Shown here: one piece after another, positions 3,534 to 54,047 of the stretch
How positions within the stretch are numbered: position 1 is the first letter of the stretch
Layout: each line of letters starts with the position of its first letter
Source: a virus
Lineage: Duplodnaviria; Caudoviricetes
Direction: 5' to 3' (one strand)
Length of the DNA stretch: 59,889 bases
IMG/VR virus record: IMGVR_UViG_3300010371_000040
Coordinates: 1 to 59,889 of that record
Program-made: the position numbers and the translations under genes
The notes under the pieces: generated by a model
Database searches by the model: none
The model's input: the letters and a program-made list of their open reading frames with translations, nothing else
What the model was told of the DNA's origin: nothing

Positions 3534-3731
3534 ATGTCTGAGATCACCTATCGGATCTGGTTCACGCCCGCCGTCAATGGCGCACCGCAGGCTCTTCCCG
3601 CGCCCGACTATGAGTTTCACGAGCGCGCCGCCGCGGAGACGGTTGCCGACCACCTCGGCACGGTGAACAACCCTTGCTGGAACGGCGTCTATAGCGTCGT
3701 CGAGCAGATTGGCGGGAGGCCGCGGGCGTGA
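3534..3731 (+). CDS. hypothetical protein
   Basis: ORF behind GGAG, overlaps next start. Confidence 0.55.
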   Translation: MSEITYRIWFTPAVNGAPQALPAPDYEFHERAAAETVADHLGTVNNPCWNGVYSVVEQIGGRPRA

Positions 3732-3885
3732 GGGTCGTCGAGCAAATCGATCTCGCCACGCGCGCGATGTACACGATGGACGATGGGCAGGTTTTCTTCG
3801 TTGATCGGCGCGGTTGGATTTTCCATTCTGATGGTCATCCGGCATCGCATCCGCTTGTCGAGGAATTCATTGTGGCGGTCGTCGC

Positions 3886-4530
3886 ATGGGAAAGCTGATG
3901 TCCGTGTATGCCAGCCGCACCGGCACCAAGCGCAATCTCGCGGCGATTGCCGAAGCGGGGTGGGGATTGCTGGTCTCTCGTGCTGGAGAATGGCGGACCG
4001 AGGGCTTTGTCGATTGGGTTGCCGACAATGGCGCCTGGGCGGACTTCCAAGCCGGGCAGCCGTTTGACGAGGATATGTTCGAAGAATTCCTGCAATGGAT
4101 TGAAAGCCAATCGATTGCGCCGCGCTGGCTTGTGCTCCCCGATATAGTCGCCGGCGGCCTCGAATCCCTTTCACTGTCGCTCCGCTTTCGGAATCGCTGT
4201 CTTTCTGTAGCACCGCTCGTACTGATCGCAGTCCAGGATGGCATGGAACACGATCATCTTGCTCCGCACGTAGGGCCGTCAGTCGGCATATTCTTGGGCG
4301 GATCGACCGGCTGGAAGCTCAAGCAGATGCGGTATTGGGGCGAATTCTGCGCTGACCGCAATATTCACTATCACGTTGCGAGAGTTAACACGGCGCGGCG
4401 GATGTTTCTTGCCTCTGCGGCAAATGCCGATGGCGTAGATGGGTCTAGCGGCTCTCGCTTTGCCGTAACCATCAGAAAGCTGGACTTAGCAAGGCGTCAA
4501 CCCGATCTCTTCGCGCCGAGGGTCACATGA
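3886..4530 (+). CDS. tRNA-guanine transglycosylase/DpdA-like TIM-barrel protein
   Basis: DNGAW, LPDIV, AVQDG, IFLGG, HVARVN, DGVDGSS motifs in the order seen in TGT-like folds. Confidence 0.6.
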   Translation: MGKLMSVYASRTGTKRNLAAIAEAGWGLLVSRAGEWRTEGFVDWVADNGAWADFQAGQPFDEDMFEEFLQWIESQSIAPRWLVLPDIVAGGLESLSLSLRFRNRCLSVAPLVLIAVQDGMEHDHLAPHVGPSVGIFLGGSTGWKLKQMRYWGEFCADRNIHYHVARVNTARRMFLASAANADGVDGSSGSRFAVTIRKLDLARRQPDLFAPRVT

Positions 4531-5075
4531 CCCCGCGCGCCGGCGCCCTCTGCCTTGATCTGGGCAGCGACTGTGGTTGGGCCAGGGAGCGCCCCGGCCT
4601 TCCGCCGCGCCTCGGCACGTGGAATCTCCGCGCTCCATCGAAGCATCCGGGCGCGATGCTCTGCAACCTCACGGACTTCCTGTGGGATCATTGCAGCGAT
4701 GACCCGCCCGAGAAGATCGTCTACGAAGCGCCGTTCATGATGATCCCCAAGCAGGGCGACAAGGCGATGGGAAATGCCGCGACGCTGGAGCACCTCCTGT
4801 GCCTCACAGCGCCGGTGAAGATGATGGGCTGCCGTCTCTCGATCCCGGTCTATCTGATCGCGGTCAGCAGCGCGCGCAAAGGGTTCTGCGGCAACGGGCG
4901 CGCGACGAAGGAAGAGGTCTATGAAGAAGCCGTACGACGCGGATGGAACCCGGCCAACATGCACGAGTCGGACGCCGGAGCTTTGAGCGATCAGTACCAG
5001 CAGCTTTTCCATCCCGAAGAGTGGGCGCGGTGCAATCCGGGACTCGCGGCGGCGCGGGCGTATAGGAGGCGATGA
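4527..5075 (+). CDS. RuvC-like Holliday junction resolvase
   Basis: ALCLDLG..CGWA, IVYEAP, GNGRATKEEV, ESDA acidic motifs. Confidence 0.75.
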   Translation: MTPRAGALCLDLGSDCGWARERPGLPPRLGTWNLRAPSKHPGAMLCNLTDFLWDHCSDDPPEKIVYEAPFMMIPKQGDKAMGNAATLEHLLCLTAPVKMMGCRLSIPVYLIAVSSARKGFCGNGRATKEEVYEEAVRRGWNPANMHESDAGALSDQYQQLFHPEEWARCNPGLAAARAYRRR

Positions 5076-6520
5076 TGACCGACGGCCGCAAACCCCAAAG
5101 CAAGACGGACAACAGAGGACCGGTGATGGATTACGACGAGTTTCTGGATAGGAAGACGCAGATCGGCACGCAGGACGGGTTTGATCCGGTGTTCGAGCCG
5201 GAGTTCCTGTTCGATTTCCAGCACGCGCTGGTCGAGTGGGCGGTGCTCAAGGGACGCTCGGCCATATTCGCCGACTGCGGCATGGGCAAGACCGCGATGC
5301 AGTTGGCTTGGGCAGAAAATATCGTTCGAAAGACGAACCGGTCGGCGTTGATCCTCACTCCGCTCGCTGTCGCTCATCAGACCGCCCGCGAGGCCGCGAA
5401 GTTCGATATCGAGGCGCACGTCTCGACCGACGGGACCGTTCGACCCGGCATCAACATCGCCAACTACGAGAAGCTCCACTATTTCGACGCCAACGACTTC
5501 GCCGGCACGGTGTGCGATGAGAGCTCAATCCTCAAATCGTTCGACGGGACAAGACGACAACAGATCACCGAATTCATGCGCAAGATGCGATATCGGCTGC
5601 TCTGCACCGCTACGCCGTCGCCGAACGAATATATCGAGCTCGGCACGTCGAGCGAGGCGCTCGGCTATCTCGGCTACATGGACATGCTGACGAGGTTCTT
5701 CAAAAACGACCAGGGCAATTCGATCAAGCCGAATGTCTTCCGTGACAAGGGCCGCAACCACGCCAAACTCGACGACAACGCGAAATGGCGGTTCAAGGGG
5801 CACGCCGAGGGTCCGTTCTGGCAGTGGGTGTGCTCGTGGGCGAGGGCCATGCGCAAGCCGTCCGACCTTGGGTTCAGTGACGGTGATTTCGTTCTGCCCC
5901 CTCTGGTCGAACAGCAGCACCTTGTTCATGCCACCTCGCGGCCTGACGGCATGCTGTTCGCGCTTCCCGCCTACGGGTTGCAGGAGCAGCGCGAGGAGCG
6001 GCGCCGGACTATCGACGAGAGGTGCGAGGCGGCGGCCGGACTGGTCAACCGCACGGGCGCGCCGGCGATTGTCTGGTGCCATCTCAACGACGAGGGCAAC
6101 TCGCTCGAGAGGCTGATACCGGACGCCGTGCAGGTCAGCGGAACCGATTGCGACGACGCGAAGGAAGAGAAGTTCACCGCCTTCGTCGACGGCAAGGCGC
6201 GTGTCCTGATCACCAAGGACAAGATCGGCGCCTGGGGCCTCAACTTTCAGCACTGCGCGCACTCGGTATCGTTCCCGACGCACTCATTCGAAGGCTACTA
6301 CCAATCGGTGCGCCGATGCTGGCGGTTCGGCCAGACGAGGCAGGTCGTGTCCGACATCGTGACGACCGAGGGCGAGAAAGACATCCTCGCCAACCTGCAG
6401 CGCAAATCTGCCGCCGCGGACAAAATGTTCACCGCCCTGATCGGCTACATGAACGACGCGATCGCCGTTGATCGCAGCACGAAATTCACTAAGAAAGAGG
6501 AACTGCCAGCATGGCTGTGA
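5072..6520 (+). CDS. SF2 (SNF2-like) helicase
   Basis: Walker A DCGMGKT, DESS, CTATP, GLNFQ, YYQSVRRCWRFGQ. Confidence 0.9.
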   Translation: MMTDGRKPQSKTDNRGPVMDYDEFLDRKTQIGTQDGFDPVFEPEFLFDFQHALVEWAVLKGRSAIFADCGMGKTAMQLAWAENIVRKTNRSALILTPLAVAHQTAREAAKFDIEAHVSTDGTVRPGINIANYEKLHYFDANDFAGTVCDESSILKSFDGTRRQQITEFMRKMRYRLLCTATPSPNEYIELGTSSEALGYLGYMDMLTRFFKNDQGNSIKPNVFRDKGRNHAKLDDNAKWRFKGHAEGPFWQWVCSWARAMRKPSDLGFSDGDFVLPPLVEQQHLVHATSRPDGMLFALPAYGLQEQREERRRTIDERCEAAAGLVNRTGAPAIVWCHLNDEGNSLERLIPDAVQVSGTDCDDAKEEKFTAFVDGKARVLITKDKIGAWGLNFQHCAHSVSFPTHSFEGYYQSVRRCWRFGQTRQVVSDIVTTEGEKDILANLQRKSAAADKMFTALIGYMNDAIAVDRSTKFTKKEELPAWL

Positions 6521-6716
6521 AGAAGGGCTACAAGCAGTCTCCAGAGCATATCCGCAAGCGCATCAGAACCCCCGCGCAAAATTGGATGAAATCTCTGTCG
6601 CTGAAATCCGCTCTATCAGGGCTGCGACCGGAGAATATTACGCAAAAATTGGCGCTAAGTACGGGGTTTCTGCGCAGCAAGTGTTCAGAATAGTCAATCT
6701 AAAATCCTGGAGTTAA
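6511..6716 (+). pseudogene. remnant of HNH homing endonuclease (NUMOD3-like plus C-terminal HTH, nuclease core missing, frame-disrupted)
   Basis: MAVKKGYKQSPEHIRKR in one frame; NPRAKLDEISVAEIR...IGAKYGVSAQQVFRIVNLKSWS in another; AT-rich. Confidence 0.6.
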
Positions 6717-6718
6717 AC

Positions 6719-7690
6719 ATGCCGGTAATCGACCAAGTTATTACTGAGAGATATGCTATATATAATTCTGATTGTATCGACATAATGAAGTCCCTGCCCG
6801 ACGAAAAGATACACCTGTCGGTCTATTCCCCTCCGTTTGGAGGTCTATTCCAATATTCCAGCAGCGAGCGCGATCTATCGAACGCCGACAGCTACGAGCA
6901 GTTTTTCGAGCACTACGCCTTCGTGGTGCGCGAACTCGCCCGACTGACGGTGCCCGGTCGGATGACGGCGGTGCATTGCATGGATGTCCCAAGCGGCAAC
7001 ACCGGAACCGATTTCCTCATCGACTTTCCCGGCGACATTATCCGACTGCACCAGCGCGAGGGATGGAATTTCATAGCTCGGTATGCCGTCTGGAAAGAAC
7101 CGCTGGCCGTGCGTAATCGCACCATGGCGAAGAACCTGGCGCATCGATCGCTAGTCGAGGACAGTTCTCGATGCAGTGTCGCCTCGGCCGATTACCTCTT
7201 GGTGTTCCGTCGTGCCGGCGAGAACAAAATCCCGATCACCCATCCGACCGGGCTGATGGATTATGCCGGATCGCGACTCCCACCGACCGACGTTCTGAAG
7301 TTCCGCGGCTGGACGGGCAATCAGATCGAGAACAAGTTCTCGCATTGGATCTGGCGCCAGTACGCGTCGGCCTTCTGGGATGACGTCCGCATTGAGCGCG
7401 TGCTGCCGTTCAAGCAGGCTCGAGACGAACAGGACGAAAAGCACGTCCACCCGCTGCAACTCGACGTGATCGAGCGGGTGGTCACACTGTGGAGCAATCC
7501 GGGCGAAACCGTGCTTACGCCGTTCATGGGCGTGGGCAGCGAGGTCTTCGGCGCGGTCTCGCTCGGCCGGCGCGGCATCGGCGTCGAACTGAAGCCGACC
7601 TATTACCGTCAGTCCGTCAAGAACATGGCTCGCGTCGGTACGCCGGTCGAATACTCCACGCGCGACATGTTCGACGAGGCAATGGCATGA
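6719..7690 (+). CDS. DNA amino-methyltransferase (N4-C/N6-A, beta class)
   Basis: Catalytic SPPF motif precedes SAM-binding TPFMGVGS...GIGVELK. Confidence 0.9.
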   Translation: MPVIDQVITERYAIYNSDCIDIMKSLPDEKIHLSVYSPPFGGLFQYSSSERDLSNADSYEQFFEHYAFVVRELARLTVPGRMTAVHCMDVPSGNTGTDFLIDFPGDIIRLHQREGWNFIARYAVWKEPLAVRNRTMAKNLAHRSLVEDSSRCSVASADYLLVFRRAGENKIPITHPTGLMDYAGSRLPPTDVLKFRGWTGNQIENKFSHWIWRQYASAFWDDVRIERVLPFKQARDEQDEKHVHPLQLDVIERVVTLWSNPGETVLTPFMGVGSEVFGAVSLGRRGIGVELKPTYYRQSVKNMARVGTPVEYSTRDMFDEAMA

Positions 7691-8143
7691 CCAAGGGCGA
7701 ATTCATCGAAAAGCTGATCGCCGACCTGATGCGATCTCATCCGCTGAAGACGGCGGCTCAGCGTCGGCGGCTGGCCGAGGAGATCTGGCGGCAATACATG
7801 CTGCACGGGTTCGGTCCGTAATTTCTTGACCGATCCACTTAATAGGGAATAGCTTTTCAACCGTCCGCCCCGGCCAGGGCACATGGACACGGGTGGGGTA
7901 GTCGCCGGAGTCGTTCCCGGTCGGCAGCTCCACCCACCCCTGCCGCATTCTTGCGGCGCGAACGACAGGAGAAAACGCCATGAGTGCGCCAGGACCACAA
8001 TCCACCGAGCACCTTTCCAGTCTCCGCGCTGCCCTGACAGCCGACGACCTGTTCATCCCCTCCGCCCTTCCCCGTGACAGCGGCGAGCGCGCGACCGTGG
8101 AAATCCTCGCGTCGATTGAGCGGGCTGTCGAGCGGGTGTCATC

Positions 8144-8563
8144 ATGACCCGGACCACCGATACACCCCATAGGGGACATACAGAACTACCGTGGCGCGTG
8201 ACTGAAACTTGGTCGCCGCCGGTCGGCAACTATTCGCCAGGGCCGAATGAAGAGGTTCGCGACGGAAAGATTTTCTGGGGCTACTCGATTTCTGGCAGCG
8301 ACGAGCGCGGTGCTCATATCCTGCCAACCCTTGGCGCGATCCACAACTTTCCAGATCAAATCCACGCCAACGCCGCCTTCATTGTCCAGGCCGTCAACTC
8401 CCACTATGGGCTGATAGAGGCGCTGGAGAAGGCGCGCGACACTTTCCGCCACTACGGAGACCTGCACGCCGCCAAGCCCGACGAGGTGAAGGCAAAGCGC
8501 AACTACGACCTCGCCGACGAAATGGATGCAGCACTTAAGGCAGCGAGAGGGGAGAAGTCGTGA
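8144..8563 (+). CDS. hypothetical protein
   Basis: ANAAFIVQAVNSH..LIEALE motif common in phage accessory genes. Confidence 0.65.
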   Translation: MTRTTDTPHRGHTELPWRVTETWSPPVGNYSPGPNEEVRDGKIFWGYSISGSDERGAHILPTLGAIHNFPDQIHANAAFIVQAVNSHYGLIEALEKARDTFRHYGDLHAAKPDEVKAKRNYDLADEMDAALKAARGEKS

Positions 8564-8814
8564 GCGAGCGCCCCTTCTCGCCCGCGAGCGATCCGCCCGA
8601 GCCCACGCACTGCCACCTCTGCGGCGACAAATTCTCAGCGCTCGCACCGCGCCACAAGCACCATCGCGACTGCTGCACGCACTGCATCCGTGAAAAGCTG
8701 CTAAGCATCCAAGGCATCGATATGACGGACCGTCGGCCGTGGATCGATCAGCTTTACGCTGCTTGGCTGGCTCAGGACGACCAGCCGTTCGATGTTCCGG
8801 AGCGGTCCGAATGA
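8560..8814 (+). CDS. small Cys/His-rich hypothetical protein
   Basis: CHLC...CTHC; coupled start/stop with neighbours. Confidence 0.55.
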   Translation: MSERPFSPASDPPEPTHCHLCGDKFSALAPRHKHHRDCCTHCIREKLLSIQGIDMTDRRPWIDQLYAAWLAQDDQPFDVPERSE

Positions 8815-9584
8815 GCGGCTGGTATCGCATGTACGACGACGAGTTGGACGATCCGCGCATACAGCGTCTGCCGGCCGAAGACTTCAAATTCCGGATGAAC
8901 TGCCTGCACCTCGCGAACCGCCACGGCGGGTTTTTGCCCTCGATCGAAGACATCGCCTTTGCGTTTCGTATGACCGATATCGCTGTCCGATCGACCCTCG
9001 ATCGCCTGCTTATCGCTGGCCTGATCGAAGTATCGAAAGGTGGGCCGAACGGTAAGCGGATCGCTCCTTTGGACTGGAATAAAAGGCAATACAAATCAGA
9101 TACTTCAACCGAAAGAGTGCAACGTTTCAGGGAACGACAGGCAACGGCGACTGAAACGCCATTACGCGCGCGTTCAGAATCAGATCAGAATCAGAATCTT
9201 AAATCCACGGCTGACGCCGTCGTGGTCGATCTATTTGGCGGTCAGCAGCAGCCCGAACCTGTCCAGGCCGCGATCGAACCCGACCAATCGTACACACCGA
9301 CCAAGGAATTTTGGGACCTCGGGCCGGCCGTGCTCAAAGCCGTCGGCGTCGAGCAGAAATCCATACGTGGCCTGATGGGCAAGCTGCAGAAGGCCAGGCG
9401 CCCGGACGAGTGCTGCCGGATCATCGAGCTGATGTCCGAGCAGCCACCCGCCGATCCGGTGCCGTGGCTGATGTCCTGGTGCAATCCGGCTCGACGCGTG
9501 CCGTTTGCCAACGGCCGACCTCCGCCCGATCCAGGCGACGACGGCTCGCCGTTCGGTTCCGGGGAAGTCATGGACAGCTGGTAA
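8811..9584 (+). CDS. phage replication initiator (replisome-organizer-like)
   Basis: MSGWYRMYDDELDDPRIQRL..., WNKRQYKSDTSTERVQRFRER; internal TCAGAA-type repeats near 9173-9198; upstream of primase-helicase. Confidence 0.75.
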   Translation: MSGWYRMYDDELDDPRIQRLPAEDFKFRMNCLHLANRHGGFLPSIEDIAFAFRMTDIAVRSTLDRLLIAGLIEVSKGGPNGKRIAPLDWNKRQYKSDTSTERVQRFRERQATATETPLRARSESDQNQNLKSTADAVVVDLFGGQQQPEPVQAAIEPDQSYTPTKEFWDLGPAVLKAVGVEQKSIRGLMGKLQKARRPDECCRIIELMSEQPPADPVPWLMSWCNPARRVPFANGRPPPDPGDDGSPFGSGEVMDSW

Positions 9585-9588
9585 AATC

Positions 9589-9888
9589 ATGGGGATGCAC
9601 GATGAAATTACGAAATTGGGGATCAAGCTGCCATCAACGGCACCGGGGACCTACCACACGACCTGCCCAAAATGCTCGCACACCAGGAAGCACAAAACCG
9701 CGCGCTGCCTCACCGTCACCATCGAGCGAGACCGCTTCAAGCATTTTTGCCACCATTGCGGCTGGAAAGGTGTCGTAAGCGATGGCGCTGAGCAGCAAAG
9801 CCATCGATTGGGCCAAAGGCCGCGGAATCAGCGAGTCGACTTTGGCGGCGCTCGGCGTCGACAGCGGTACGACCTGGATGGGCGATGA
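9589..9888 (+). CDS. primase zinc-binding domain (separate ORF)
   Basis: TTCPKCSHTRK...CL...FCHHCGWKG, like the N-terminus of T7 gp4/Twinkle-type primases. Confidence 0.75.
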   Translation: MGMHDEITKLGIKLPSTAPGTYHTTCPKCSHTRKHKTARCLTVTIERDRFKHFCHHCGWKGVVSDGAEQQSHRLGQRPRNQRVDFGGARRRQRYDLDGR

Positions 9889-11251
9889 GCGGGGCGAATG
9901 CGAGGTAATCGCCTTCCCGTACCGTCGCGGCGCCAAGGTCATCAACTGCAAATACCGGACGATCGAGGGCAAAGACTTCAAGCAGATGAAGGACCCGGAG
10001 CTGCGTTTCTGGAACGCGGACGCGGTACTTGCCGGGGAGAAGCGCGAGGTTTTCATCGTCGAGGGGGAGTGTGACGCCCTGGCGATGGTCGAGGCAGGCC
10101 TGTCGATCGACGCGGTGCTCAGCGTGCCGAACGGGGCGCCGTCACAGGCCTCCGACGCTCCCGAACAGCAGGACCGCTACCGGTTCGTCGAGACGGCGCT
10201 GGGCGAGGGGATGGGGAAGGTCAAGAAGTTCGTGATCGCCGTCGACCAGGACGCGCCCGGCCTCGCTCTGCGGCAGGACCTTGTGCGCCTGCTGGGCCCG
10301 GCGCGCTGCTCATTCATCGATTGGCCGTACGGCTGCAAGGACGCGAACGAATTCCTGCTGAAGTTCGGCGCCGAGGACTTGCGATCATATCTCACCGAGG
10401 CCGCGCAGGAATGGCCGGTGGAGGGGTTGTACCGTCTATCCGAGCTGCCGGAGCAGGCGCCTTTCGAGACCTGGTTGCCAGGCTTCCGAGAGTGGGAAAA
10501 CAAGCTACGATTCGCGGCCAGGACTGTGAGCGTTTGCACCGGCTATCCCGGGCACGGAAAGACGTCTCTGATGACCCAAATCTGGTATCAGATCTGCCGC
10601 GATTATAACCTGTCGGTGGCGATGGCGAGTTTCGAGACGCGGCCGAAGCCTCACCAGCGAAAGAACATCCGCCAGTTCATGTACGGCAAGCCCCAGGGCG
10701 AGCTTTCGGATAATCAGATCGCCGAGGCCGATAAGTGGGCCGACGATCATATGTATTGGATGGTCCACCCGAATCGCAAACCTTCCCTCCGCTGGCTGTT
10801 GGACACCGCGGAGGTTGCCATAATCCGGCATAGGGTACGCTCCGTTTCGATCGATCCCTGGAATCGCCTCGAGGGTGATCGGCCGCAGGGGATGTCCGAG
10901 ACCGATTACATCGGCCAGTGCCTGGACGAGTGCATCGACTTCGCCAACGACATGAACGTCCACGTCCAGATCCTCGCGCACCCCGCTAAGACCGACCCCA
11001 ACCACCGAAAGAGCCCGCCGCAGCTCTACGACATCGCCGGCAGCTCGCACTGGAATAACAAGGTCGATCTTGGCCTGTGCGTCCATCGGCCGGCGACATT
11101 CGAAGGCGGCCAGCGCAAGACCGAGGCCAATCTGTACGTGCTCAAGACGCGCTTTGAGGAGCTCGGTTATCCGTGCAAGTTGGCGCTGGATTATAGGCTG
11201 GATCAGCGGCGGTACGTCTCGACCGATTATCAGGTGGGGGCGGTGCCGTGA
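9782..11251 (+). CDS. TOPRIM primase plus DnaB-like (SF4) helicase
   Basis: IVEGECDAL, SVPNGA, AVDQDAPG, KDANE; Walker A GYPGHGKT; IDPWN; AHP; DIAGS. Confidence 0.92.
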   Translation: MALSSKAIDWAKGRGISESTLAALGVDSGTTWMGDERGECEVIAFPYRRGAKVINCKYRTIEGKDFKQMKDPELRFWNADAVLAGEKREVFIVEGECDALAMVEAGLSIDAVLSVPNGAPSQASDAPEQQDRYRFVETALGEGMGKVKKFVIAVDQDAPGLALRQDLVRLLGPARCSFIDWPYGCKDANEFLLKFGAEDLRSYLTEAAQEWPVEGLYRLSELPEQAPFETWLPGFREWENKLRFAARTVSVCTGYPGHGKTSLMTQIWYQICRDYNLSVAMASFETRPKPHQRKNIRQFMYGKPQGELSDNQIAEADKWADDHMYWMVHPNRKPSLRWLLDTAEVAIIRHRVRSVSIDPWNRLEGDRPQGMSETDYIGQCLDECIDFANDMNVHVQILAHPAKTDPNHRKSPPQLYDIAGSSHWNNKVDLGLCVHRPATFEGGQRKTEANLYVLKTRFEELGYPCKLALDYRLDQRRYVSTDYQVGAVP

Positions 11252-18414: not shown

Positions 18415-20313
18415 ATGAGCGATTTCAACTGGGACGCCCTGCAGGAAGGCTTCTATGACTTCCTTTCTCACGTCCAAATTCTGAGTAAGGACGAGGGCCG
18501 CGTCCGCCTGCGCATGTACGACGCGCAGCGCTATTTCTTCGATGAGATTTTCGACGGCCTTCGCAACGACATCCACTGGTTCGTTTGCGGCAAGGGCAGG
18601 CAGCTCGGGATCACGACCGCATGCCTGATGTTCGACACCTTCTACGCCGGCGCCATGCCCGACGTGCAGGGCGGCATCGTGTTCGATACCACCGACAACA
18701 AGGAGAAGTTCCGCAAGCTGCTCGACGAGATGATGATGTCTCTGCCGCCGAGCCACGCGCTGCCGATCCGCAAAGGGGGCAACAACCGCGCCGGCATCAC
18801 GTTCGAAAACGGCAACATGCTGGACTACCTCGTCGCCGGCATCAAACGCGGAACCGGCACGCTCGGCAACTCCCGTGCGCTCAATTTCAGCCACGCGAGC
18901 GAATGCGCCTACTACGGCGACAGCGAGGCGGTGCAGGCATACAAGAACGTGCTGTCGGACGTGTTCCCGACCAGGCTGTACATCTTCGAGTCGACGGCCA
19001 AGGGGTACAACCTGTTCTACGACCTGTGGGAAGAGGCGGTCGCCGACGAGGTTGCCAAGAAGGCGATATTCATCGGCTGGTGGCGCAAGCGGACCTATAG
19101 CCACGCCAAGGGCACGCCGCTATTCCAGCGCTATGGGTGGCCGAAACTATCCGACGACGAGCGCGAGCGGTCCAAGATCGTTGATGACCTTTACGGGGCG
19201 AAGATCACGATTGAGCAATGGGCGTGGTATCGCCATCGCGCCGATCCGGCCGGACGCGCGAACGAGGAAGAGAACCAGTCCGAGCAGCGCGAGATGGTCG
19301 CGCAGGAGCATCCGACCCATCCCGAGGAGATGTTCCGCGAATCGGGCAACCCCTTCATCCCGTCGCAATATCTCGACCCGGCGATGAAGATCGCGCAAAA
19401 GGCGATGTTCAAGGGATACCGCTATCACCTCGGCGACGACATCTCGACCATGCGGCTGGAAAAGACGAAGTTCGTCAACCAGACGCAGATGCGCGTGTGG
19501 CAGGAGCCGTCGCCCACAGGCGTCTATATCGTCGCCGCCGATACCGCGTTCGGCATATCCGACGACGGCGATGCGCAATGCGCCCAGGTCGTGCGCTGCT
19601 ACGCCGACAAGATGGTGCAGGTCGCCGAGTTCTGCGACCGCAGCGTGCAGCCGTTCCAATTCGCGTGGATTCTGCTGCACCTATGCGGCTGGTACGGCGA
19701 CTGCCGGTTTATCCTTGAGCTCAACGGCGCCGGCGAGGCGGTGTGGACCGAACTCAAGAACCTGAAGCAGCGGGTCGAGAACGGCTCGCTCTATCCACCG
19801 CGGCCTTTCCCCGGCGACGACCCGAACGACGAGGACACCGCCGAAGCGCGCAACACCTATGCCCGGGTGCGGCAGTACCTGTTCCGGCGATCGGACAGCC
19901 TGGGCGGCGGCATGAACTGGCAGATGAGGACCAGCCTCGAGACCAAGTTCAATTTCATGACGCAGTTCGCCGACCGCTTCATGCTCGGCCAGTTCGATAT
20001 TTTCTCGGTGCCGGCGCTGAAGGAAATGCAGACGCTGAACAAGGACGGCCGCATGATCCACGCGGCCGGCAAGGGCAAGGACGACCGCCCGGTTACGCTC
20101 GGGCTGGCGACGCGGGCCTATATCGACGATATTCGCGCGCAGCTTGTCGGCAAGAACATGACGTTCGAGGCCGAGGAACTGAAGGCCCGCGAGGGCGGCG
20201 AGACGTTGCACGGGCGGTTTCTGAGTTCGATCATGGAGCGACAATTCGCGCTGAAGGCGGCGGACAGGCGGGCGGTGACGCGGCGCAAGCAGGGCAAGAA
20301 TTGGTCATGGTGA
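18415..20313 (+). CDS. terL: terminase large subunit
   Basis: Walker A KGRQLGITT, Walker B HASE, ESTAKG coupling motif, nuclease acidic residues (AADTAFG, ELNG, KDDR). Confidence 0.92.
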   Translation: MSDFNWDALQEGFYDFLSHVQILSKDEGRVRLRMYDAQRYFFDEIFDGLRNDIHWFVCGKGRQLGITTACLMFDTFYAGAMPDVQGGIVFDTTDNKEKFRKLLDEMMMSLPPSHALPIRKGGNNRAGITFENGNMLDYLVAGIKRGTGTLGNSRALNFSHASECAYYGDSEAVQAYKNVLSDVFPTRLYIFESTAKGYNLFYDLWEEAVADEVAKKAIFIGWWRKRTYSHAKGTPLFQRYGWPKLSDDERERSKIVDDLYGAKITIEQWAWYRHRADPAGRANEEENQSEQREMVAQEHPTHPEEMFRESGNPFIPSQYLDPAMKIAQKAMFKGYRYHLGDDISTMRLEKTKFVNQTQMRVWQEPSPTGVYIVAADTAFGISDDGDAQCAQVVRCYADKMVQVAEFCDRSVQPFQFAWILLHLCGWYGDCRFILELNGAGEAVWTELKNLKQRVENGSLYPPRPFPGDDPNDEDTAEARNTYARVRQYLFRRSDSLGGGMNWQMRTSLETKFNFMTQFADRFMLGQFDIFSVPALKEMQTLNKDGRMIHAAGKGKDDRPVTLGLATRAYIDDIRAQLVGKNMTFEAEELKAREGGETLHGRFLSSIMERQFALKAADRRAVTRRKQGKNWSW

Positions 20314-21116: not shown

Positions 21117-21977
21117 ATGTCATACCTATGCATCTACCACGCGAATTGCGCCGATGGCTTCGCCGCCGCCTGGGTCGTTCACCGCGCTCTCGGCGATCAG
21201 GTCGAATTCCACGCCGCGACCTATGGCGACACGCCGCCCGAGGTCATCAACAAGCACGTACTGGTCGTCGATTTCTCGTACCCGCTCGAAGACCTGACCC
21301 GTATGCAGTCTCGGGCTAACAGCGTGATGGTGCTCGACCACCACAAGACTGCCGAGGCCGATCTGCGCGACATCGAGGCCGGATCGGCGTCGTTCCACAA
21401 TCACGATCACGTCGGTCTACGGGCGATCTTCAATCAGACGACTTCCGGCGCGGGCCTCGTATGGGATTGGTTCAACCCGGGCGATCCGAGGCCGCTGATC
21501 ATCGACTACGTCGAGGACCGCGACCTGTGGAAGTTCCAGAAGGACCACTCGCGCGAAATCAACTCCTTCATCTCCACCATCGAAGATGACTTCGGGGTCT
21601 GGGATACGGAGGCCGAATCGCTTGAAGACGATCTCGGCTTTGAGATGGCCCGAGGGATCGGTCACACACTCGAAAAGTGGAAGCGGGAGTACGTCGACGA
21701 TGCCGTCAGCGCGAGCAAACGCATCATGCGGATCGGCGGCCACGATGTTCCGTGCGCGAACGTGCCGTTCCGCATGGCTTCCGACGCGGGCAATCTTATG
21801 TGCAAGGGCAATCCGTTCGCGGCCACGTATTGCGACACGGAAAAGGGGCGCGTATTCAGCCTGCGCTCGACCGACGCCGGGCTCGATGTGTCCGTTGTCG
21901 CCAAGTCCTACGGCGGCGGCGGGCACCGGAATGCCAGCGGATTCAAGATGCCGATCGGCTGGGAAGGAGACCTGTAA
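21117..21977 (+). CDS. DHH/DHHA1 phosphoesterase
   Basis: YHANCADG, VDFS, LDHH, DRDLW, GGGGHRNASGF. Confidence 0.9.
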   Translation: MSYLCIYHANCADGFAAAWVVHRALGDQVEFHAATYGDTPPEVINKHVLVVDFSYPLEDLTRMQSRANSVMVLDHHKTAEADLRDIEAGSASFHNHDHVGLRAIFNQTTSGAGLVWDWFNPGDPRPLIIDYVEDRDLWKFQKDHSREINSFISTIEDDFGVWDTEAESLEDDLGFEMARGIGHTLEKWKREYVDDAVSASKRIMRIGGHDVPCANVPFRMASDAGNLMCKGNPFAATYCDTEKGRVFSLRSTDAGLDVSVVAKSYGGGGHRNASGFKMPIGWEGDL

Positions 21978-22348: not shown

Positions 22349-24046
22349 ATGCTGCTGCCATCCAGTGACCGCCTCGCCCGCTGGGCCAAGGAACGGGTGA
22401 TCGACCAGTGCCGCAGCAGCGTCGGCGATCGCATGCAGATGGCCCGGTCGATCAACACATGGCGATTCACCGGCAGCGATAGCGGGTCACAGGCGATCTA
22501 TAACCGCCTCGGAACCCACTGCGATAAGCTCTCGTCCGCGGTGTACTCGCCGGCCGACGTCCGCTACCAGATCGAGTACGAGTCCGACTATGGATCGATC
22601 TTCACGGACAGAGCCAAGGTCGCGGCCCGCTATCTGACGCGCGAGATCGCCCAGCGTAACCTCGACCTGTCGTTCCAGGAGGCCGTGGAGGAAGCCGTCC
22701 CGCTCGGTTGCGCGATCCTCAAGCACATCTGGACGCACCACGGCCCCGACGTCACCACGCTGATGCCGTGGCAGTTCGGTGTCTATAACGAGGCGGAAAC
22801 GGATCTCGATAAGCAGGAGGCGATGTGCGAGACGACCTACTTGCTGCCCGAGGAAGTCTGGCGCCGCATCAGCCACCGCTCGGACGCCAAGGAACTCTTC
22901 CGCCGGATCATGTCGCACTCCCGCCGTGCGTCTCAGGATGAGGTTCCGCCTGGCTTCATGCACCAGCTTCTGATGGCTGGCACCCCGCCGCTGATCCAGG
23001 ACCAAGGCGCGGCATCGAGCCCCGGCGGCATGATCTCGCTCACCGGCACGCCGGCGGTTGCGATGATGGCCGCCGAGATGCAGGACGGTCTCATCGAGGC
23101 GCACCAGGCGTGGGTGGTGAACGACGAGACCGGCGACTACACGACGATCCAGCTCATCGAGCCGGACATCCTGATCGCGCCGCGGCTGATCCGCTCGAAC
23201 CTGTTTTTCCCGCACGAGCACCCGTTCAATGTCGTGCGCGTCAATCCGCAGCGGAACTACTTCTGGGGCATGTCCGAGCTCTCGCAGTTGATCAAGCTCC
23301 AGGCGCTGCTGCGCGACCGCACCGAGGACGTGAAGAAGATCATGGGCCTCCAGTACGACCGTATCCGCGCGTTCATCGGCTTCTCGGGCATGAACGATGA
23401 GAAGTACGACCAGATGACCAACGAGGGGTGGCTGTCTGAGGAAAACCCCAACGCGAAGATCGACGACCTGACGCCACCGCTGCCCGAGAACGCATTCAAC
23501 GAGATCAAGATGATCATCGATTTCTTCGATGAGATCGCCGGGTTCGATAATGCGACGTCGGGCAAGGGCGAGCCGGGCATCCGGTCGGCGAACCACTTTC
23601 AGGGCGTGCTTCGGCAGGCATCCCCGCGTCTGCGCGACCGCGCAATCCGGGTCGAGCGCCAGTGCGCGGAGTTCGGCGAGAAGGTTTTGTGGCACTGCGC
23701 CGCGAAGGACGCCCGGGTTTTCTGGACGAAGACCGACGATCCGGAGAAAAAGACCGATTTCCTGCTGTCACAGCTTCCCGATGACGCTCGCGTGCTGGTC
23801 GACAGCCATTCCGCGAGCCCGATCTACGAGCAGGACCATGCGAATACGGCGGCGTTTTTGTTCAAAAGTGGCGCCATCGACAGCGAAGATTTGTTGAACC
23901 TTCTTCCGGTACCAAACAGAGATTTTCTCATCGAGAAACTTAAAAACAGGGAAATATCGAAGCGCCAGATGCTGGAGAGTCTTCCGCCCGAGCTACGCGC
24001 CCAAGTCATTACCGGAAAGACCGTCAGCCACGCCGGAAAGCATTGA
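22349..24046 (+). CDS. portal protein
   Basis: 565 aa, downstream of terL and upstream of scaffold/capsid; YFWGMSELSQLIKLQ motif like podovirus portals. Confidence 0.8.
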   Translation: MLLPSSDRLARWAKERVIDQCRSSVGDRMQMARSINTWRFTGSDSGSQAIYNRLGTHCDKLSSAVYSPADVRYQIEYESDYGSIFTDRAKVAARYLTREIAQRNLDLSFQEAVEEAVPLGCAILKHIWTHHGPDVTTLMPWQFGVYNEAETDLDKQEAMCETTYLLPEEVWRRISHRSDAKELFRRIMSHSRRASQDEVPPGFMHQLLMAGTPPLIQDQGAASSPGGMISLTGTPAVAMMAAEMQDGLIEAHQAWVVNDETGDYTTIQLIEPDILIAPRLIRSNLFFPHEHPFNVVRVNPQRNYFWGMSELSQLIKLQALLRDRTEDVKKIMGLQYDRIRAFIGFSGMNDEKYDQMTNEGWLSEENPNAKIDDLTPPLPENAFNEIKMIIDFFDEIAGFDNATSGKGEPGIRSANHFQGVLRQASPRLRDRAIRVERQCAEFGEKVLWHCAAKDARVFWTKTDDPEKKTDFLLSQLPDDARVLVDSHSASPIYEQDHANTAAFLFKSGAIDSEDLLNLLPVPNRDFLIEKLKNREISKRQMLESLPPELRAQVITGKTVSHAGKH

Positions 24047-24068
24047 GGGGAGGCTTTCGCCTCCCCTC
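24045..24068. terminator. hairpin between convergent portal gene and pentamer array
   Basis: GAGGGGAGGC-TTTC-GCCTCCCCTC, perfect 10-bp stem, GAAA loop on the minus strand. Confidence 0.8.
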
Positions 24069-24070
24069 CC

Positions 24071-24450
24071 CTGCCTGACCAGACCTCTGCTCACCGCGCC
24101 TCGCGATACCGCACCCCGGCGCAGCTTGCCAAGCCAAGCCAAACTCTAAATCTCTAAAATAATCCTCGCCGCACCTATCCATTGCACACCTCACCGAGGC
24201 CGTCCTTGCCCAGCACCGCCCTACAGGACCAAGCCGCGCCGAAACTGAAATTGATAAATAAATCCTCGCCAGACCACACCCGGCCACGGCTGACCAAACA
24301 CTGCACCGCCACACCCAATTCGACCTTGGACCGCCGGACCTAAGCCCGCCATTCCACGCGCAACCCTGCCGAAGCATTCCGCGCCTAGCCTTGCCTAACA
24401 CCGCACAACCTCGCCGGGCCATGGCTAGCCAATCCCAGCCGTGCCGGACC
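24071..24450 (-). ncRNA. putative guide-RNA array of GGY-NN pentamers (three blocks)
   Basis: Blocks 24450-24261 (38 units), 24240-24161 (16) and 24140-24071 (14), all in one 5-nt register; 42 of 68 units start GGC/GGT; two 20-nt AT-rich linkers each preceded by GGCGAGGATT. Confidence 0.8.
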
Positions 24451-24452
24451 CC

Positions 24453-25076
24453 TTATCCTGCCTCAATCGAAAAGTTGGAAATGCCGAAACGACCGTAAGT
24501 CGGCCGGAAATCGCCGACGCCGACCAGACGACCAGCGGACTCGATGGTCTCGCGCAGGTCGTTGGTCGAAATGTACTCAGGTAGGCCGCACATCAGTTGG
24601 ATTTCGGCGGCCCAACCCGCCCGCATCGCAGGACGCGTGCGCGTGATCGCCGACCGTTGAATGACGACCCGCCGCCGATCCTCGTAGTCCCAATCCGGGG
24701 TTCCGAGAGAGGCCAATTCGGTCAGGCTGACGATCCCGGCGTTGAATAAATCCATCGCCGACTTCCGGGGGCTGCGCGGGTCCTGACGGAACTTCGCCGC
24801 CATCACGATCGACCGCCGCAGGTATTCGCCGGGCAGGCAGAGCATCCCCGCCTCGTCGCGGTAGACGTAGCTTTCCAGATCGTCGCTCTTTTTGGCCGCG
24901 CTGTTCTTCGCCGCCTTCGCCTTGGTCTCGACGGCCTCCGAATTCCACCGATGGAACAGGATCGCCGCCGATCCCACGATTGTGACGCGCGCGATGTACG
25001 GCTCGCTGAGTGCGATGTCCGAGTTTCCGCCGGGCGAAACGCCGTCGATGACCTTCAATGCTGCTGACTTTGCCAC
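24453..25076 (-). CDS. solitary Cas7/RAMP-like protein
   Basis: N-terminal beta strand (ARVTIVGSAAILFH), LPGEYLRRSI, C-terminal glycine loop AGRLVGVGDFRPTYGRF; GTG start behind AAGGAG. Confidence 0.75.
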   Translation of the reverse strand: MAKSAALKVIDGVSPGGNSDIALSEPYIARVTIVGSAAILFHRWNSEAVETKAKAAKNSAAKKSDDLESYVYRDEAGMLCLPGEYLRRSIVMAAKFRQDPRSPRKSAMDLFNAGIVSLTELASLGTPDWDYEDRRRVVIQRSAITRTRPAMRAGWAAEIQLMCGLPEYISTNDLRETIESAGRLVGVGDFRPTYGRFGISNFSIEAG

Positions 25077-25160
25077 TTGCAATCTCCTTGCCTAAAAACG
25101 CCATATGTCGTATGGCTCGCGCATTGCTATTAGCACTACGTATTGCAGGGAGCAAGCATT

Positions 25161-25316
25161 ATGTCCGAGAAAGTCGCGGTAACCTTCCGCATCGAGAAAA
25201 AGCTGAGAGACCAGCTTGAGAAAATCGCACATTTCGAGCGCCGGACGATGACCGGCGTCATTGAAGCGATGATCGATGATCGGTGGAAGCAGACGCCGGA
25301 CGGGAAGGCCGACTAA
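25161..25316 (+). CDS. ribbon-helix-helix (Arc/CopG-like) regulator
   Basis: Not in the ORF track; MSEKVAVTFRIEKKLRDQLEKIAHFERRTMTGVIEAMI..., GGGAG RBS, divergent from the RAMP gene. Confidence 0.75.
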   Translation: MSEKVAVTFRIEKKLRDQLEKIAHFERRTMTGVIEAMIDDRWKQTPDGKAD

Positions 25317-25591
25317 AACTGCGGCTTGTTCGTCTGCTCGAACGGCACTCGCTTCCGCACCAACGCATGCAGCGCACTCCCGATGCTCTCGGCACCCATG
25401 ATCTGCGCCGCCGTATCAGCATCGATGCCAGGATAGAAACCCTTGTTTCCCGCCGGGTTCTTGACCGTCGGCGCGAAGTGAACGTGAAGCTGTTGCGCCT
25501 GTGCGTCGTACCCGATTTTCAGGATGTGGCTTGATAGCACTTCCTGCATCTCGACGGGCGGCGGGGCGGGTTGCTGATTTTCTTCGTCCAT
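25313..25591 (-). CDS. KTSC domain protein
   Basis: VLSSHILKIGYD...LHVHF...FYPGI...AESIGS..HALVR. Confidence 0.8.
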   Translation of the reverse strand: MDEENQQPAPPPVEMQEVLSSHILKIGYDAQAQQLHVHFAPTVKNPAGNKGFYPGIDADTAAQIMGAESIGSALHALVRKRVPFEQTNKPQF

Positions 25592-27536: not shown

Positions 27537-28559
27537 GTGACCTTCCCGCTTTCCGGAACTGGCATCGCACCGACAGGGCCAGTCTTCAGCGAACTCAACG
27601 CCCTGACGCGCCGCGCATTCATTCCGACGGTGGTCACGCAGCTCTATTTCTCGAGCCCGTCCCTGTTCATGCTGATGGGTGCGGCCCAACGCGCGGCCGG
27701 CGGCCTCAACCAGATCACGGTGCCGGTGCAGGGCCAGTCGATGGTCCAGGGTGCCTGGACCGGCTATGCGGGCAACTTCAACAGGCCTCAGGTCATCCCC
27801 GGCGTTCAGCCCGCCCAGTGGATGCTGAGCTACTATACCGTCCCGGTCCCGCTGGTCATGGGCGAGGCGCTCATCCAGTCGACCGAGGCGATCGTTCCGA
27901 TCATCGACGTCCGCATGAACGACGTGTACGCGGTGATGGCGCAGCAGTTCTCAAGCGCGCTGTTCAGCAACAACTCGGCGAATTCGCTGATGCCGCAGGG
28001 TTTCGTCGAGGCATTCGACGATGGCAGCCAGGTGCCGGTCTACGGCGGCATCGCGCGCAACCAGGGCGGAAACCAGTTCTGGCAGTCCAACCGCATCACC
28101 AATGTCGGCGCCAACAACACGCGCGCCGCCTGGTCGACCTATCTGATCCAGGTGACCAAGCTGGCCGGCGGCGAGACGCCCGATTTCGTGCTGATGTCAC
28201 CCGGCGACTTCGCCGTCCTGGCGGCGCAGTTCATCGGTGTCGAGCAGATCAACATACGTCCGGGCCAGCAGTTCACGATGGACACGAACATCCGGTCGGG
28301 CTTCCCGAACGTGATGATCAACGGGGTGCCGTTCTTCCTCGACTACTCGTGCCCGACCGGCACGGCGTATATGGCGAACAGCAAGTATTACGCCATGCAT
28401 ATCAGTGAGGACGCGCAGTTCGACTTCACCGGGTTCTATAGCCTTGTTCCATTGGGGCAATTGGCCGTCGTAGGCGTAGCTTACACCGGGTATAATGTGA
28501 TTTGCTCAAAGCCCGTTTCTGGTGCAAGTTTCAGTGGCATCACTGGGGCGCCATTTTAG
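27537..28559 (+). CDS. major capsid protein
   Basis: 340 aa, strong AAGGAG RBS, biased codon use, position after scaffold. Confidence 0.8.
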   Translation: MTFPLSGTGIAPTGPVFSELNALTRRAFIPTVVTQLYFSSPSLFMLMGAAQRAAGGLNQITVPVQGQSMVQGAWTGYAGNFNRPQVIPGVQPAQWMLSYYTVPVPLVMGEALIQSTEAIVPIIDVRMNDVYAVMAQQFSSALFSNNSANSLMPQGFVEAFDDGSQVPVYGGIARNQGGNQFWQSNRITNVGANNTRAAWSTYLIQVTKLAGGETPDFVLMSPGDFAVLAAQFIGVEQINIRPGQQFTMDTNIRSGFPNVMINGVPFFLDYSCPTGTAYMANSKYYAMHISEDAQFDFTGFYSLVPLGQLAVVGVAYTGYNVICSKPVSGASFSGITGAPF

Positions 28560-52309: not shown

Positions 52310-52786
52310 TCAATCTTTCTTTGGAAAATCTTCCGGGCTCAGCGTCTCGTCCTCATATAACGCCTGCTCAGCCCCATCTCTCGTCAGCACGAATAGCCAA
52401 TCGCCGCCGAAGGTCGCTCGATTGTCGATTCGAACAGCGAGACCTTTCTTGCACATATCCATCCACGCGCCGTAATCGCCATGGCTTTCACCGGCAACGA
52501 ACCTATTCCGATAGCTCTCTTTGCGTTTGCCGTCTAAGCCAAGTGCATGACGCGCAAGAGAAACCTCAGCGAAATAAAGCTGGCTGTGCTTCCAGCAGAA
52601 TGCCCGGCTCCCGGCGAAAAGCTCGCTATCCCGCATCGGGCAGCTAAAATCACAGTGTTCGGTTCCAGCCATCATGCATTGGCCGCCGTCCATCAGGCCG
52701 CACTCATCCATGAGGTCGTCGTCTTCGTCGCGGTCGAAGTCGTCGGAATCGTAGTCATCGTCGAACCACCCGCGCTGCTCAGACAT
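52310..52786 (-). CDS. hypothetical protein
   Basis: GGAGG RBS; RHALGL...YRNRFV motif. Confidence 0.65.
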   Translation of the reverse strand: MSEQRGWFDDDYDSDDFDRDEDDDLMDECGLMDGGQCMMAGTEHCDFSCPMRDSELFAGSRAFCWKHSQLYFAEVSLARHALGLDGKRKESYRNRFVAGESHGDYGAWMDMCKKGLAVRIDNRATFGGDWLFVLTRDGAEQALYEDETLSPEDFPKKD

Positions 52787-54044
52787 TCAGTCCTCCCGCC
52801 GGCTTGCGGATCTCGGCATTCACCGCCGCGACCGCCTCCGCCAGCCCCACCACAGCACCGATCAGCGGCTTGTTCGCCTGATCGAACGCCAGCATTTCGC
52901 GCGCCTTCCCGTCGGCAAACATCGGCGCGACGATCGCCCGGTAGCGGAGCAGATATTCCCCCTCGCTTTCGAACTTTTCCTCGCCGGTCGGGGTCATCAG
53001 CCGGTAGATCGCGTCCTCGTCGGAGGGTGCGGGCTCGGATTGCCCCGCCGCTGCGTCAATGGCCTCTCGGATATCGAGGCGCATCCGCTTCACCGTATCG
53101 GGATGCTTCTCGGCGATCCGGTCGAACACCTCGCGGTTGCGGTCCAAGAATGCGGTCAGCGCCGGGGCACTTGCGCCGCCGCCCAACCGCTTGCGTATCT
53201 GGTATGCCCAGTTCTCCTCGTTCTCCAGATCGCGCGTCACGCCATCGCCGAAAATCGCTTCCCACTTCGTTTGATCGCGCAGGGAGAACGCCTCCGACGG
53301 AGGCGGCTGCGTTGCGCTGACCGGATGAACTTCGGCGTCAACGATCAGCGCTTGGTCCTCAGCGCGGATGTATGCAGGACTTCCCTGGTCGACGGCGTCG
53401 TCGAGCGCCACAGCCAACTGCAGAAGGTCGATCGGGCACGACTTTGACAGTCGGCGCTTAACCGTCTTCTTCGCCATCTCGACGAAATCGGTGTTCCACG
53501 GCGTATCGGCGCGCTTCGTCTTCGACCGCGCCTTGATCCGCATGATCTCGTCCAGGCCCATCGCATCGACCAGCGGCGGGAACATCTTGCTTTCGAGGGT
53601 GGCGTAGGCGGCGATGATCTTCGTCTTGTCCGGCTGGCGCTTGCTGAAGTCGGGCCAGACCTTCGCATAGCCGCCGGTGCCGAGCATGATCTCGTACCGC
53701 TCGCCTTCGTAGATCGCATTGCCGCCGAGCAGGAAACCAGATCGGGCGGCGATGGTGCCGTACCCCTTCACGCCGGTGACGAATTGCGCCTCGCTGCCGT
53801 AGGGAATGATGAAACCCTGACCGGTCGGCCCATCGCATAGCAGGCCGAGCGTGCAGGCCGTGAAGGCCGCGCGCTGGAGTGAAACTGCGGTGCATTCCCG
53901 AAGCTTATATTCGCGCTCGCAGGCAATCATGATCGACTGCATCACGCGCTTGACCGGCAGATTGGCGTTCGCCGGGATGGCCTCGGCCATGCGCGGCACC
54001 AGCGGCTTGAAGTGGTTCTCAATGACGACGAGTTCAGCAGCCAT
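52779..54044 (-). CDS. recT: RecT-family single-strand annealing protein
   Basis: GL...GQGFIIPYG..AQF..G.KG....ARSG; PWNTDFVEMAKKTVKRRLSK..P. Confidence 0.88.
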   Translation of the reverse strand: MAAELVVIENHFKPLVPRMAEAIPANANLPVKRVMQSIMIACEREYKLRECTAVSLQRAAFTACTLGLLCDGPTGQGFIIPYGSEAQFVTGVKGYGTIAARSGFLLGGNAIYEGERYEIMLGTGGYAKVWPDFSKRQPDKTKIIAAYATLESKMFPPLVDAMGLDEIMRIKARSKTKRADTPWNTDFVEMAKKTVKRRLSKSCPIDLLQLAVALDDAVDQGSPAYIRAEDQALIVDAEVHPVSATQPPPSEAFSLRDQTKWEAIFGDGVTRDLENEENWAYQIRKRLGGGASAPALTAFLDRNREVFDRIAEKHPDTVKRMRLDIREAIDAAAGQSEPAPSDEDAIYRLMTPTGEEKFESEGEYLLRYRAIVAPMFADGKAREMLAFDQANKPLIGAVVGLAEAVAAVNAEIRKPAGGLNV

Positions 54045-54047
54045 GTT

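Follow-up and report, generated by a model that had tools for sequence, protein, structure and literature searches.

A candidate VIPR cassette beside the portal gene of an uncultivated soil phage, with one guide resembling portal coding sequences

Between the portal gene and a gene for a KTSC-domain protein (P0003) of an uncultivated soil phage lies a segment (positions 24047–25312) that we describe here as a candidate Viral Interference Programmable Repeat (VIPR) cassette. The DNA analysed, called the window below, is the whole of IMG/VR phage record IMGVR_UViG_3300010371_000040 (59,889 bases; 62% G+C; estimated 98% complete, that is, complete or nearly so). VIPR systems are phage-borne, RNA-guided gene silencers, in print since April 2026; their protein, Vipr, is a small RAMP protein with an RRM core, a glycine-rich loop, and a thumb, working with vrRNAs of alternating GGY and NN (10.64898/2026.04.26.720920, 10.64898/2026.04.26.720927, 10.64898/2026.10.15.759431; hereafter the 2026 VIPR preprints). 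The segment holds a gene for a Vipr homologue, an array of pentamers of this pattern and a small divergent open reading frame (ORF). One guide of the array matches the coding sequence of the neighbouring portal gene when every third base is skipped, and matches that of some related phages better. The features of the locus are as follows.

22349–24046, plus strand: portal gene, 565 amino acids, assigned by position between the large terminase and major head protein genes and by tblastn
23855–23899, plus strand: guide-matched portal site, codons 503–517, FLFKSGAIDSEDLLN; plus would be the non-target strand, and minus would pair with the guide
24045–24068, minus strand: GC-rich hairpin (10-bp stem, GAAA loop) at the array's 3' end, overlapping the portal stop codon
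24047–25312: candidate VIPR cassette, between the portal gene and the KTSC-domain gene
24061–24140, minus strand: vrRNA array block 3, 16 pentamers, the first 12–14 being the guide that matches the portal motif and the last units entering the hairpin
24141–24160, minus strand: AT-rich linker or tail 2, 20 nt (four pentamer lengths)
24161–24240, minus strand: vrRNA array block 2, 16 pentamers, ending GGCGA GGATT
24241–24260, minus strand: AT-rich linker or tail 1, 20 nt (four pentamer lengths, phase kept)
24261–24450, minus strand: vrRNA array block 1, 38 pentamers, ending GGCGA GGATT
24453–25082, minus strand: vipr gene (P0002), predicted RAMP/Cas7-like guide-RNA-binding protein, 209 amino acids from a TTG start
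25143–25316, plus strand: small divergent ORF inside the cassette (probable ATG at 25161), 51–57 amino acids, MSEKVAVTFRIEKKL...

The Vipr homologue and the pentamer array

P0002 is related to a Vipr protein of known structure. In a phmmer search it matches PDB chain 36pp_D, 'SUSP1 Vipr protein', with E 3.2e-7 over 135 residues. The SUSP1 residues H17, K33, and R39 fall outside the aligned stretch, and the residue comparison covers seven other contact residues, by which GGY and the DNA strands are held: E71, K82, K88, R138, D177, W178, and R179 of SUSP1 Vipr correspond to E86, K97, R103, R150, D191, F192, and R193 of P0002. All seven are conserved or conservatively replaced, and they are invariant in 11 homologues of P0002. 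An AlphaFold2 model of the protein (predicted local distance difference test 70.6, predicted template modelling score 0.67) is matched by Foldseek to Csm3/Cas7 chains with probability 1.00, the best E being 5.4e-6 and 84 matches having E ≤ 0.001. Judging from the N-termini of the homologues, a GTG at 25076, two codons downstream of the TTG, is the more likely start codon.

The family is large. At E ≤ 0.001, 6972 database proteins are homologous to P0002, nearly all of them unnamed or called 'hypothetical protein'; the first of the preprints took 2,664 unique Vipr sequences, with 664 representative loci, as its starting point (10.64898/2026.04.26.720920). GGYNN arrays adjoin the gene on the same strand in all three of the IMG/VR loci with a 62–66% identical Vipr, and a GGYNN array also adjoins the 59% identical Vipr homologue of GenBank phage DSL-LC04 (OR003939.1, L068). 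The arrays of these homologous loci differ in their NN. In DSL-LC04 the Vipr homologue is annotated 'helix-turn-helix transcriptional regulator', and the GGYNN array just upstream is unannotated (features at 3720–3900 and 4007–4624). A 147-residue ORF there overlaps the stop codon of the Vipr homologue and could be vap, the accessory gene that is 'typically' present at VIPR loci (2026 VIPR preprints).

The array begins 3 nt past the vipr stop codon on the same strand, with no gene between. From 24450 to 24061 (minus strand) it comprises 70 pentamers, all in one phase and of the form GG-not G-N-N, and this 5-nt phase is unbroken through the entire array, both 20-nt linkers included. G occupies position 1 in 60/70 units, position 2 in 59/70, and position 3 in 2/70, where C (34), T (25), and A (9) take its place; the triplet is exactly GGC or GGT in 42 units and GGA in seven. 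The base content of positions 4–5 is near uniform despite the 62% G+C of the genome. The autocorrelation of G at lags of 5, 10, 15, and 20 is 0.40, 0.36, 0.29, and 0.26, respectively, and comparable 5-nt phasing is found nowhere else in the genome. Tandem Repeats Finder reports just three copies of a 5-mer at the array, and Rfam has nothing at the gathering threshold in the whole window, nor at E ≤ 1 in 23950–25350.

Published VIPR arrays have four or more GGY/NN units beside vipr, with a conserved scaffold and hypervariable NN, and individual vrRNAs have 9–16 repeats and a conserved 3' tail (2026 VIPR preprints). Blocks 2 and 3 have 16 units each and block 1 has 38, and their tails are not uniform. 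Block 1 probably holds more than one guide. Its internal strings GGCGA GGTTG TGCGG TGTTA and GGCGG TGCAG TGTTT resemble block ends and may be decayed guide boundaries.

The RNA fold of 24165–24030, which includes the hairpin stem at 24045–24068, has a minimum free energy of -63.6 kcal/mol (z -4.12). The stem is followed by no T-run and a terminator scan gave no call; the hairpin is likely the end of both convergent transcripts. There is no convincing ORF in 24047–24452, and a 132-residue ORF at 24024–24422 (minus strand) has no Pfam match. A G-quadruplex array, a pac site, a Rho utilisation site, and translation of this 132-residue ORF were each entertained for the repeats and dropped, the neighbouring ORF being a Vipr homologue.

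The block 3 guide and portal genes

The ORF at 22349–24046 is accepted as the portal gene because it sits between the large terminase (18415–20313) and major head protein (27537–28559) genes and because tblastn aligns it with GenBank phage genes annotated 'portal protein' (30.9% identity, E 8e-61); Pfam and PHROGs hold no match for it.

An earlier note on this DNA, made from the sequence alone, had claimed that the dinucleotides of block 3 equal the first two bases of portal codons in 10 of 15 units. Taken as the leading TT (24142–24141, the last two bases of the second linker) plus the last two bases of 14 pentamers, the script-extracted guide is identical to the list in that note: from 24142 on the minus strand, TT TT TT AA GC GG GC AT GA GC GA GA CT CA AG. 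The portal codons from 23855 are TTT TTG TTC AAA AGT GGC GCC ATC GAC AGC GAA GAT TTG TTG AAC, encoding FLFKSGAIDSEDLLN, and are in frame with the portal ORF (23855 - 22349 = 1506 = 3 x 502). Ten of the 15 units match codon positions 1–2, all ten within the first 12 or 13, corresponding to 22/30 bases.

Apart from this site, the guide scores no higher than 7 on either strand of the 59,889-base genome, a value reached at two positions. When the order of its dinucleotides is shuffled, a genome-wide score of at least 10 is reached in 1/3000 trials and of at least 9 in 43/3000, in agreement with the chance estimate of about 3e-4 in the earlier note. When all 79 array dinucleotides are shuffled and every sliding window is scored, a maximum of 10 is obtained in 2/400 trials with 15-unit windows and in 1/400 with 12-unit windows. 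The guide scores at most 6–7 if the skip is changed to 0, 2, or 3 bases, if its order is reversed, or if its parallel complement is used, and only the 1-nt skip gives an outlier match in this genome. The match between block 3 and the portal gene is unlikely to be chance.

The 1-nt skip is the published VIPR rule. NN pairs with the DNA and one base is skipped per unit, as concluded from a pangenome search, electrophoretic mobility shift assays with competitors, and silencing of green fluorescent protein; in the cryo-EM structure there is one protomer per repeat, GGY is flipped into protein pockets, and five RNA bases span three DNA bases (2026 VIPR preprints). Usually the skip coincides with the wobble position, an arrangement that according to the authors defeats synonymous escape. 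The gapped code proposed in the earlier note thus coincides with the published one, next to a Vipr homologue 3 nt from the array, and its argument that such a code is insensitive to synonymous escape is the one that the preprint authors make. Its reading of the strands holds as well: published guides read like the non-target strand with one base in place of each GGY and pair with the strand complementary to them, so a portal-sense guide would pair with the template strand. The interpretation in that note is supported and is not novel, the code having been published in April 2026.

In the core of the own-gene match, the mismatches are an AGT and an AGC serine codon opposite GC in the guide, with both bases wrong at both sites. 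The pairing is therefore broken into runs of 4, 4, and 2. The own gene scores 67–77% when the guide is read as 15, 14, or 13 units and 83% at 12 units. The published threshold for targets is at least 80% of NN; silencing is obtained with guides aimed at either strand within coding sequence and no protospacer adjacent motif is involved (2026 VIPR preprints).

The own gene departs from the guide exactly at the positions where portal homologues vary, and there relatives have the version of the guide. The guide spells F/L-F/L-F/L-K/N-A-G-A-I/M-D/E-A-D/E-D/E-L, to which the peptide FLFKAGAIDAEDL corresponds. The motif, searched as a regular expression, occurs in 46/88 portal homologues and the exact peptide in four of the 88 (P0126, P0129, P0131, and P0144). 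The 26 closest homologues divide evenly at motif position 5 (13 Ser, 13 Ala), and at position 10 there are 16 with Ala, 10 with Gly, and none with Ser; seven distant homologues (P0205–P0211) have Ser at position 10. At the two sites where the own gene has AGY, the codons of relatives are GCN, TCN, GGN, or CCN. Portal DNA of relatives was scored as matches out of 15 units and as the longest contiguous run, with the following results.

Own gene: 10/15, longest run 4
L002: 9/15, longest run 3
L005: 9/15, longest run 6
L004: 10/15, longest run 7
L003: 11/15, longest run 7
L037 (metagenome contig, portal 71.5% identical): 12/15 (80%), longest run 11
L009 (portal 26–38% identical): 11/15, longest run 9
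L011 (portal 26–38% identical): 10/15, longest run 10
L014 (portal 26–38% identical): 10/15, longest run 10
L019 (portal 26–38% identical): 11/15, longest run 11

L037 reaches the published 80% threshold. Together with the four homologues that carry FLFKAGAIDAEDL, it bears out the suggestion that the guide is aimed at the portal genes of related phages; portal homologues do have GCn, GCn, and CTn at the sites where their consistent absence had been named as a refutation.

Counts of database hits tell nothing either way. A 9-unit core of the guide is found at 11 IMG/VR loci, four of which are portal homologues by tblastn, and a shuffled core is found at 16. The number of hits was therefore rejected as evidence. 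A 10-unit pattern is found at seven loci in genome_contigs, none of them a portal homologue (tblastn with P0001), and at 18 loci in metagenome_contigs, of which two are portal homologues by tblastn; one of the two, L030, has the same codons as L019. This pattern also matches a conserved gene of Methanoperedens and related archaea (D-I/M-L-K/N-A-G-A-I-E-A-E-D-M; loci L020–L024, L026, L028, L032–L034, L036, L040, and L044), most likely by chance, the peptide being a common one.

Only block 3 matches anything above background in the own genome or in the genomes of three relatives. Blocks 1 and 2 give no 12-unit window of at least 9/12 in 67 loci (661,292 bases), which had been chosen for block 3, and four exact 9-unit patterns, two from each of these blocks, are found at 0 IMG/VR loci each, in an exact search that misses one-mismatch targets.

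Surroundings of the cassette and comparison with known systems

The junction of the portal gene and the convergent KTSC gene is a variable insertion spot. In relatives the two genes abut or hold other inserts: the spot is empty in L004 and carries small membrane-like or other ORFs in L002, L003, and L037. No array lies downstream of the portal gene in L002–L005, relatives found through the portal protein (58–73% identity), and vipr was not found in the searched records of three portal relatives (30, 76, and 93% complete). The small ORF at 25143–25316 has no Pfam match (E ≤ 0.1) and no counterpart in L002–L008, L037, or L068; its product looks like a ribbon-helix-helix DNA-binding protein, and we do not claim it as vap. 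PADLOC recognises no Cas or defence model among the cassette proteins.

Elsewhere in the window, the large terminase and portal genes flank a DHH-family phosphoesterase gene (21117–21977, plus strand; phrog_4771, E 1.7e-93). Genes for RecT- and RecE-like recombination proteins, a DNA polymerase exonuclease subunit, a primase/helicase, a helicase, and a DNA methyltransferase lie at 52779–55728 (minus strand) and 5072–11251 (plus strand). None of the 10 large ORFs scanned was recognised as an integrase, and no tRNAs were found. A blastn search of 22349–25200 against GenBank phages returned no match. The sequencing runs listed as containing this stretch comprise one DNA run, which may be the source sample, and no RNA run.

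Among known systems, the cassette most resembles type II VIPR of Escherichia phage SUSP1 and a Pseudomonas fulva prophage (10.64898/2026.04.26.720920, 10.64898/2026.04.26.720927). As in that type, there is a RAMP protein of about 200 amino acids with a conserved G-loop and a thumb arginine, followed directly downstream on the same strand by a guide array of GGY/NN pentamers, of which blocks 2 and 3 contain 16 each. The single skipped base coincides with the wobble position, the probable target lies in a coding sequence of phages in competition with this one, and the self match is poorer than that of the rival. The cassette differs from type II VIPR in that P0002 is only distantly related to the published protein, no vap is recognised, 20-nt AT-rich spacers keep the phase between blocks, and block 1 runs to 38 units, among which no internal boundary is obvious. 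A further difference is the gene matched, a structural gene (portal) of close kin. The natural targets named for VIPR are satellites, prophage (lysis-lysogeny) regulators, and other VIPR loci, that is, rival phages and mobile elements (2026 VIPR preprints). In the text available, the word 'portal' is absent from the main text of 10.64898/2026.04.26.720920 and occurs twice in 10.64898/2026.10.15.759431, in methods on prophage and satellite calling.

The predicted fold also matches the backbone proteins of class 1 CRISPR systems, namely Csm3 and Cas7-11 chains, and published Vipr, like Cas7 and Csm3, has one protomer per guide repeat and periodic base flipping by the thumb. Unlike class 1 CRISPR, however, the guide has a period of 5 nt with two pairing bases rather than 6 nt with five, and is borne by a phage; the locus has neither a repeat-spacer (direct-repeat) array nor cas genes.

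The binding sites of the trp RNA-binding attenuation protein (TRAP) consist of triplets spaced 2–3 nt apart, with the fixed triplet (G/U)AG. The array resembles them in its 5-nt RNA period, each unit combining a constant triplet with an unconstrained dinucleotide, and differs from them in having GGY as the constant triplet, a RAMP protein as neighbour, and no TRAP-like protein encoded nearby. A binding site for TRAP or another ring protein was dropped as an explanation, since the neighbouring ORF is a Vipr homologue.

Possible role of the block 3 guide

As far as sequence can tell, the locus has the VIPR features that can be tested in silico, namely the protein, its contact residues, the array, and, for the block 3 guide only, the skip rule. 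We consider it probable that 24047–25312 is a working VIPR cassette in which the block 3 guide silences the portal gene of kin phages with Ala at both variable motif positions (Ala/Ala), while the own copy is spared. After the published SUSP1 system, a minus-strand transcript would be expressed that carries vipr and then about 70 GGYNN pentamers, from which vrRNAs would be processed. Vipr protomers would polymerise along the RNA, one per pentamer, with GGY buried and NN presented. The presented dinucleotides would pair with a DNA strand, every third base being skipped, and the bound filament would block transcription.

The block 3 guide spells codon positions 1–2 of F-L-F-K-A-G-A-I-D-A-E-D-L, a conserved C-terminal motif of the portal family of this phage, and its most likely job would be silencing of the portal gene in relatives with the Ala/Ala version that co-infect or superinfect. 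The own portal copy would be a poorer target because, at its two AGY serine codons, neither of the first two bases agrees with the guide, a difference by which self and non-self may be discriminated. In the published system, three guide sets have no self-hit of at least 80%, and self-scores are below non-self scores (2026 VIPR preprints).

Several observations weigh against this reading. The gap between self and the best non-self match is two units (10 and 12 of 15), and L002 and L005 score below self. A 12-unit reading of the guide puts the self match at 83%, above the 80% that no published self-hit passed. Among exact core matches in IMG/VR, JGI metagenomes, and GTDB genomes there is no target of at least 13/15, the shuffled core matched more IMG/VR loci than the real one, and no portal homologue matches the last two or three dinucleotides of the guide (CA AG, with AG AG in the hairpin). 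As for the other guides, blocks 1 and 2 have no 12-unit window scoring at least 9 in the own genome, nor one of at least 9/12 in the whole records of three relatives plus L004 and L037 (386,334 positions). Within block 3, the GGCGA GGATT ending of blocks 1 and 2 is not present, the block ending in the hairpin instead. Its first 14 units comprise 10 with the GGY scaffold and four with degenerate triplets (GCT, GCC, CGC, and GCA), and perturbation of GGY abolishes silencing in the published system (2026 VIPR preprints). Finally, no vap accessory gene is recognised in the cassette.

Alternatively, the block 3 guide could act on the phage itself. Partial pairing at 23855–23893, about 150 bp before the portal stop codon, would tune late-gene transcription or stop run-in to the convergent VIPR cassette. 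The only genomic site that any array guide matches above background is indeed the own portal gene, about 200 bp away, the 12-unit reading exceeds the published cut-off, and published VIPR acts on either strand within coding sequence. However, relatives match better (12 and 11 versus 10 of 15), the double-base self mismatches cut the pairing to short runs, the peptide encoded by the guide is that of relatives and not the own one, and the published guide sets have no self-hit at the cut-off, with self-scores below non-self scores. We regard self-regulation as unlikely.

A true VIPR array could also resemble the portal gene by coincidence, its real target being elsewhere or lost. G-first, codon-like patterns of such composition are common, as the shuffled core illustrates, the 10-unit pattern matches unrelated archaeal and bacterial genes (all seven loci in genome_contigs and 16/18 metagenome loci are non-portal), and the match extends to just 67% of 15 units. 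Against this, composition-preserving shuffles reach the score in 1/3000 trials for the one guide and 2/400 for the whole array, other skip lengths and orientations give no more than 7, and the mismatches fall where portal homologues vary and relatives have the version of the guide. Coincidence is very improbable in our view.

Slightly less probable still is that block 3 is a relic, a decaying guide, now without function, that in the past matched the portal gene of an ancestor or rival: its degenerate scaffold triplets, its missing ending, and the merging of its 3' units into the hairpin would fit decay, but internal degeneracy of vrRNAs is frequent (2026 VIPR preprints), the share of degenerate units is similar in blocks 1 and 2, and eleven contiguous dinucleotides still match the gene of a living relative.

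Returning to a guide directed at kin, it is conceivable, though we hold it rather doubtful, that the phage has recoded its own essential portal gene for immunity to its own guide, with AGY serines where kin have Ala GCN, Ser TCN, Gly, or Pro. If so, the guide and its self-target would be linked as 'poison and antidote', a pair by which close kin are excluded, VIPR would here be aimed at a structural gene of its own family rather than at satellites or regulators, and the near-self match would record the origin of the guide in the portal gene of kin.

The non-contiguous VIPR code, in which NN is read and the wobble base skipped, was re-derived in the earlier note from raw sequence alone. To the known systems this locus adds a distant Vipr clade that lacks vap and comes from a soil phage, with thousands of unannotated homologues, and a guide that best matches the portal genes of the phage's relatives, with the own gene just under the published threshold. 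It would thus be a compact natural case for the mismatch tolerance of VIPR and for how self-silencing is avoided while close kin are targeted.

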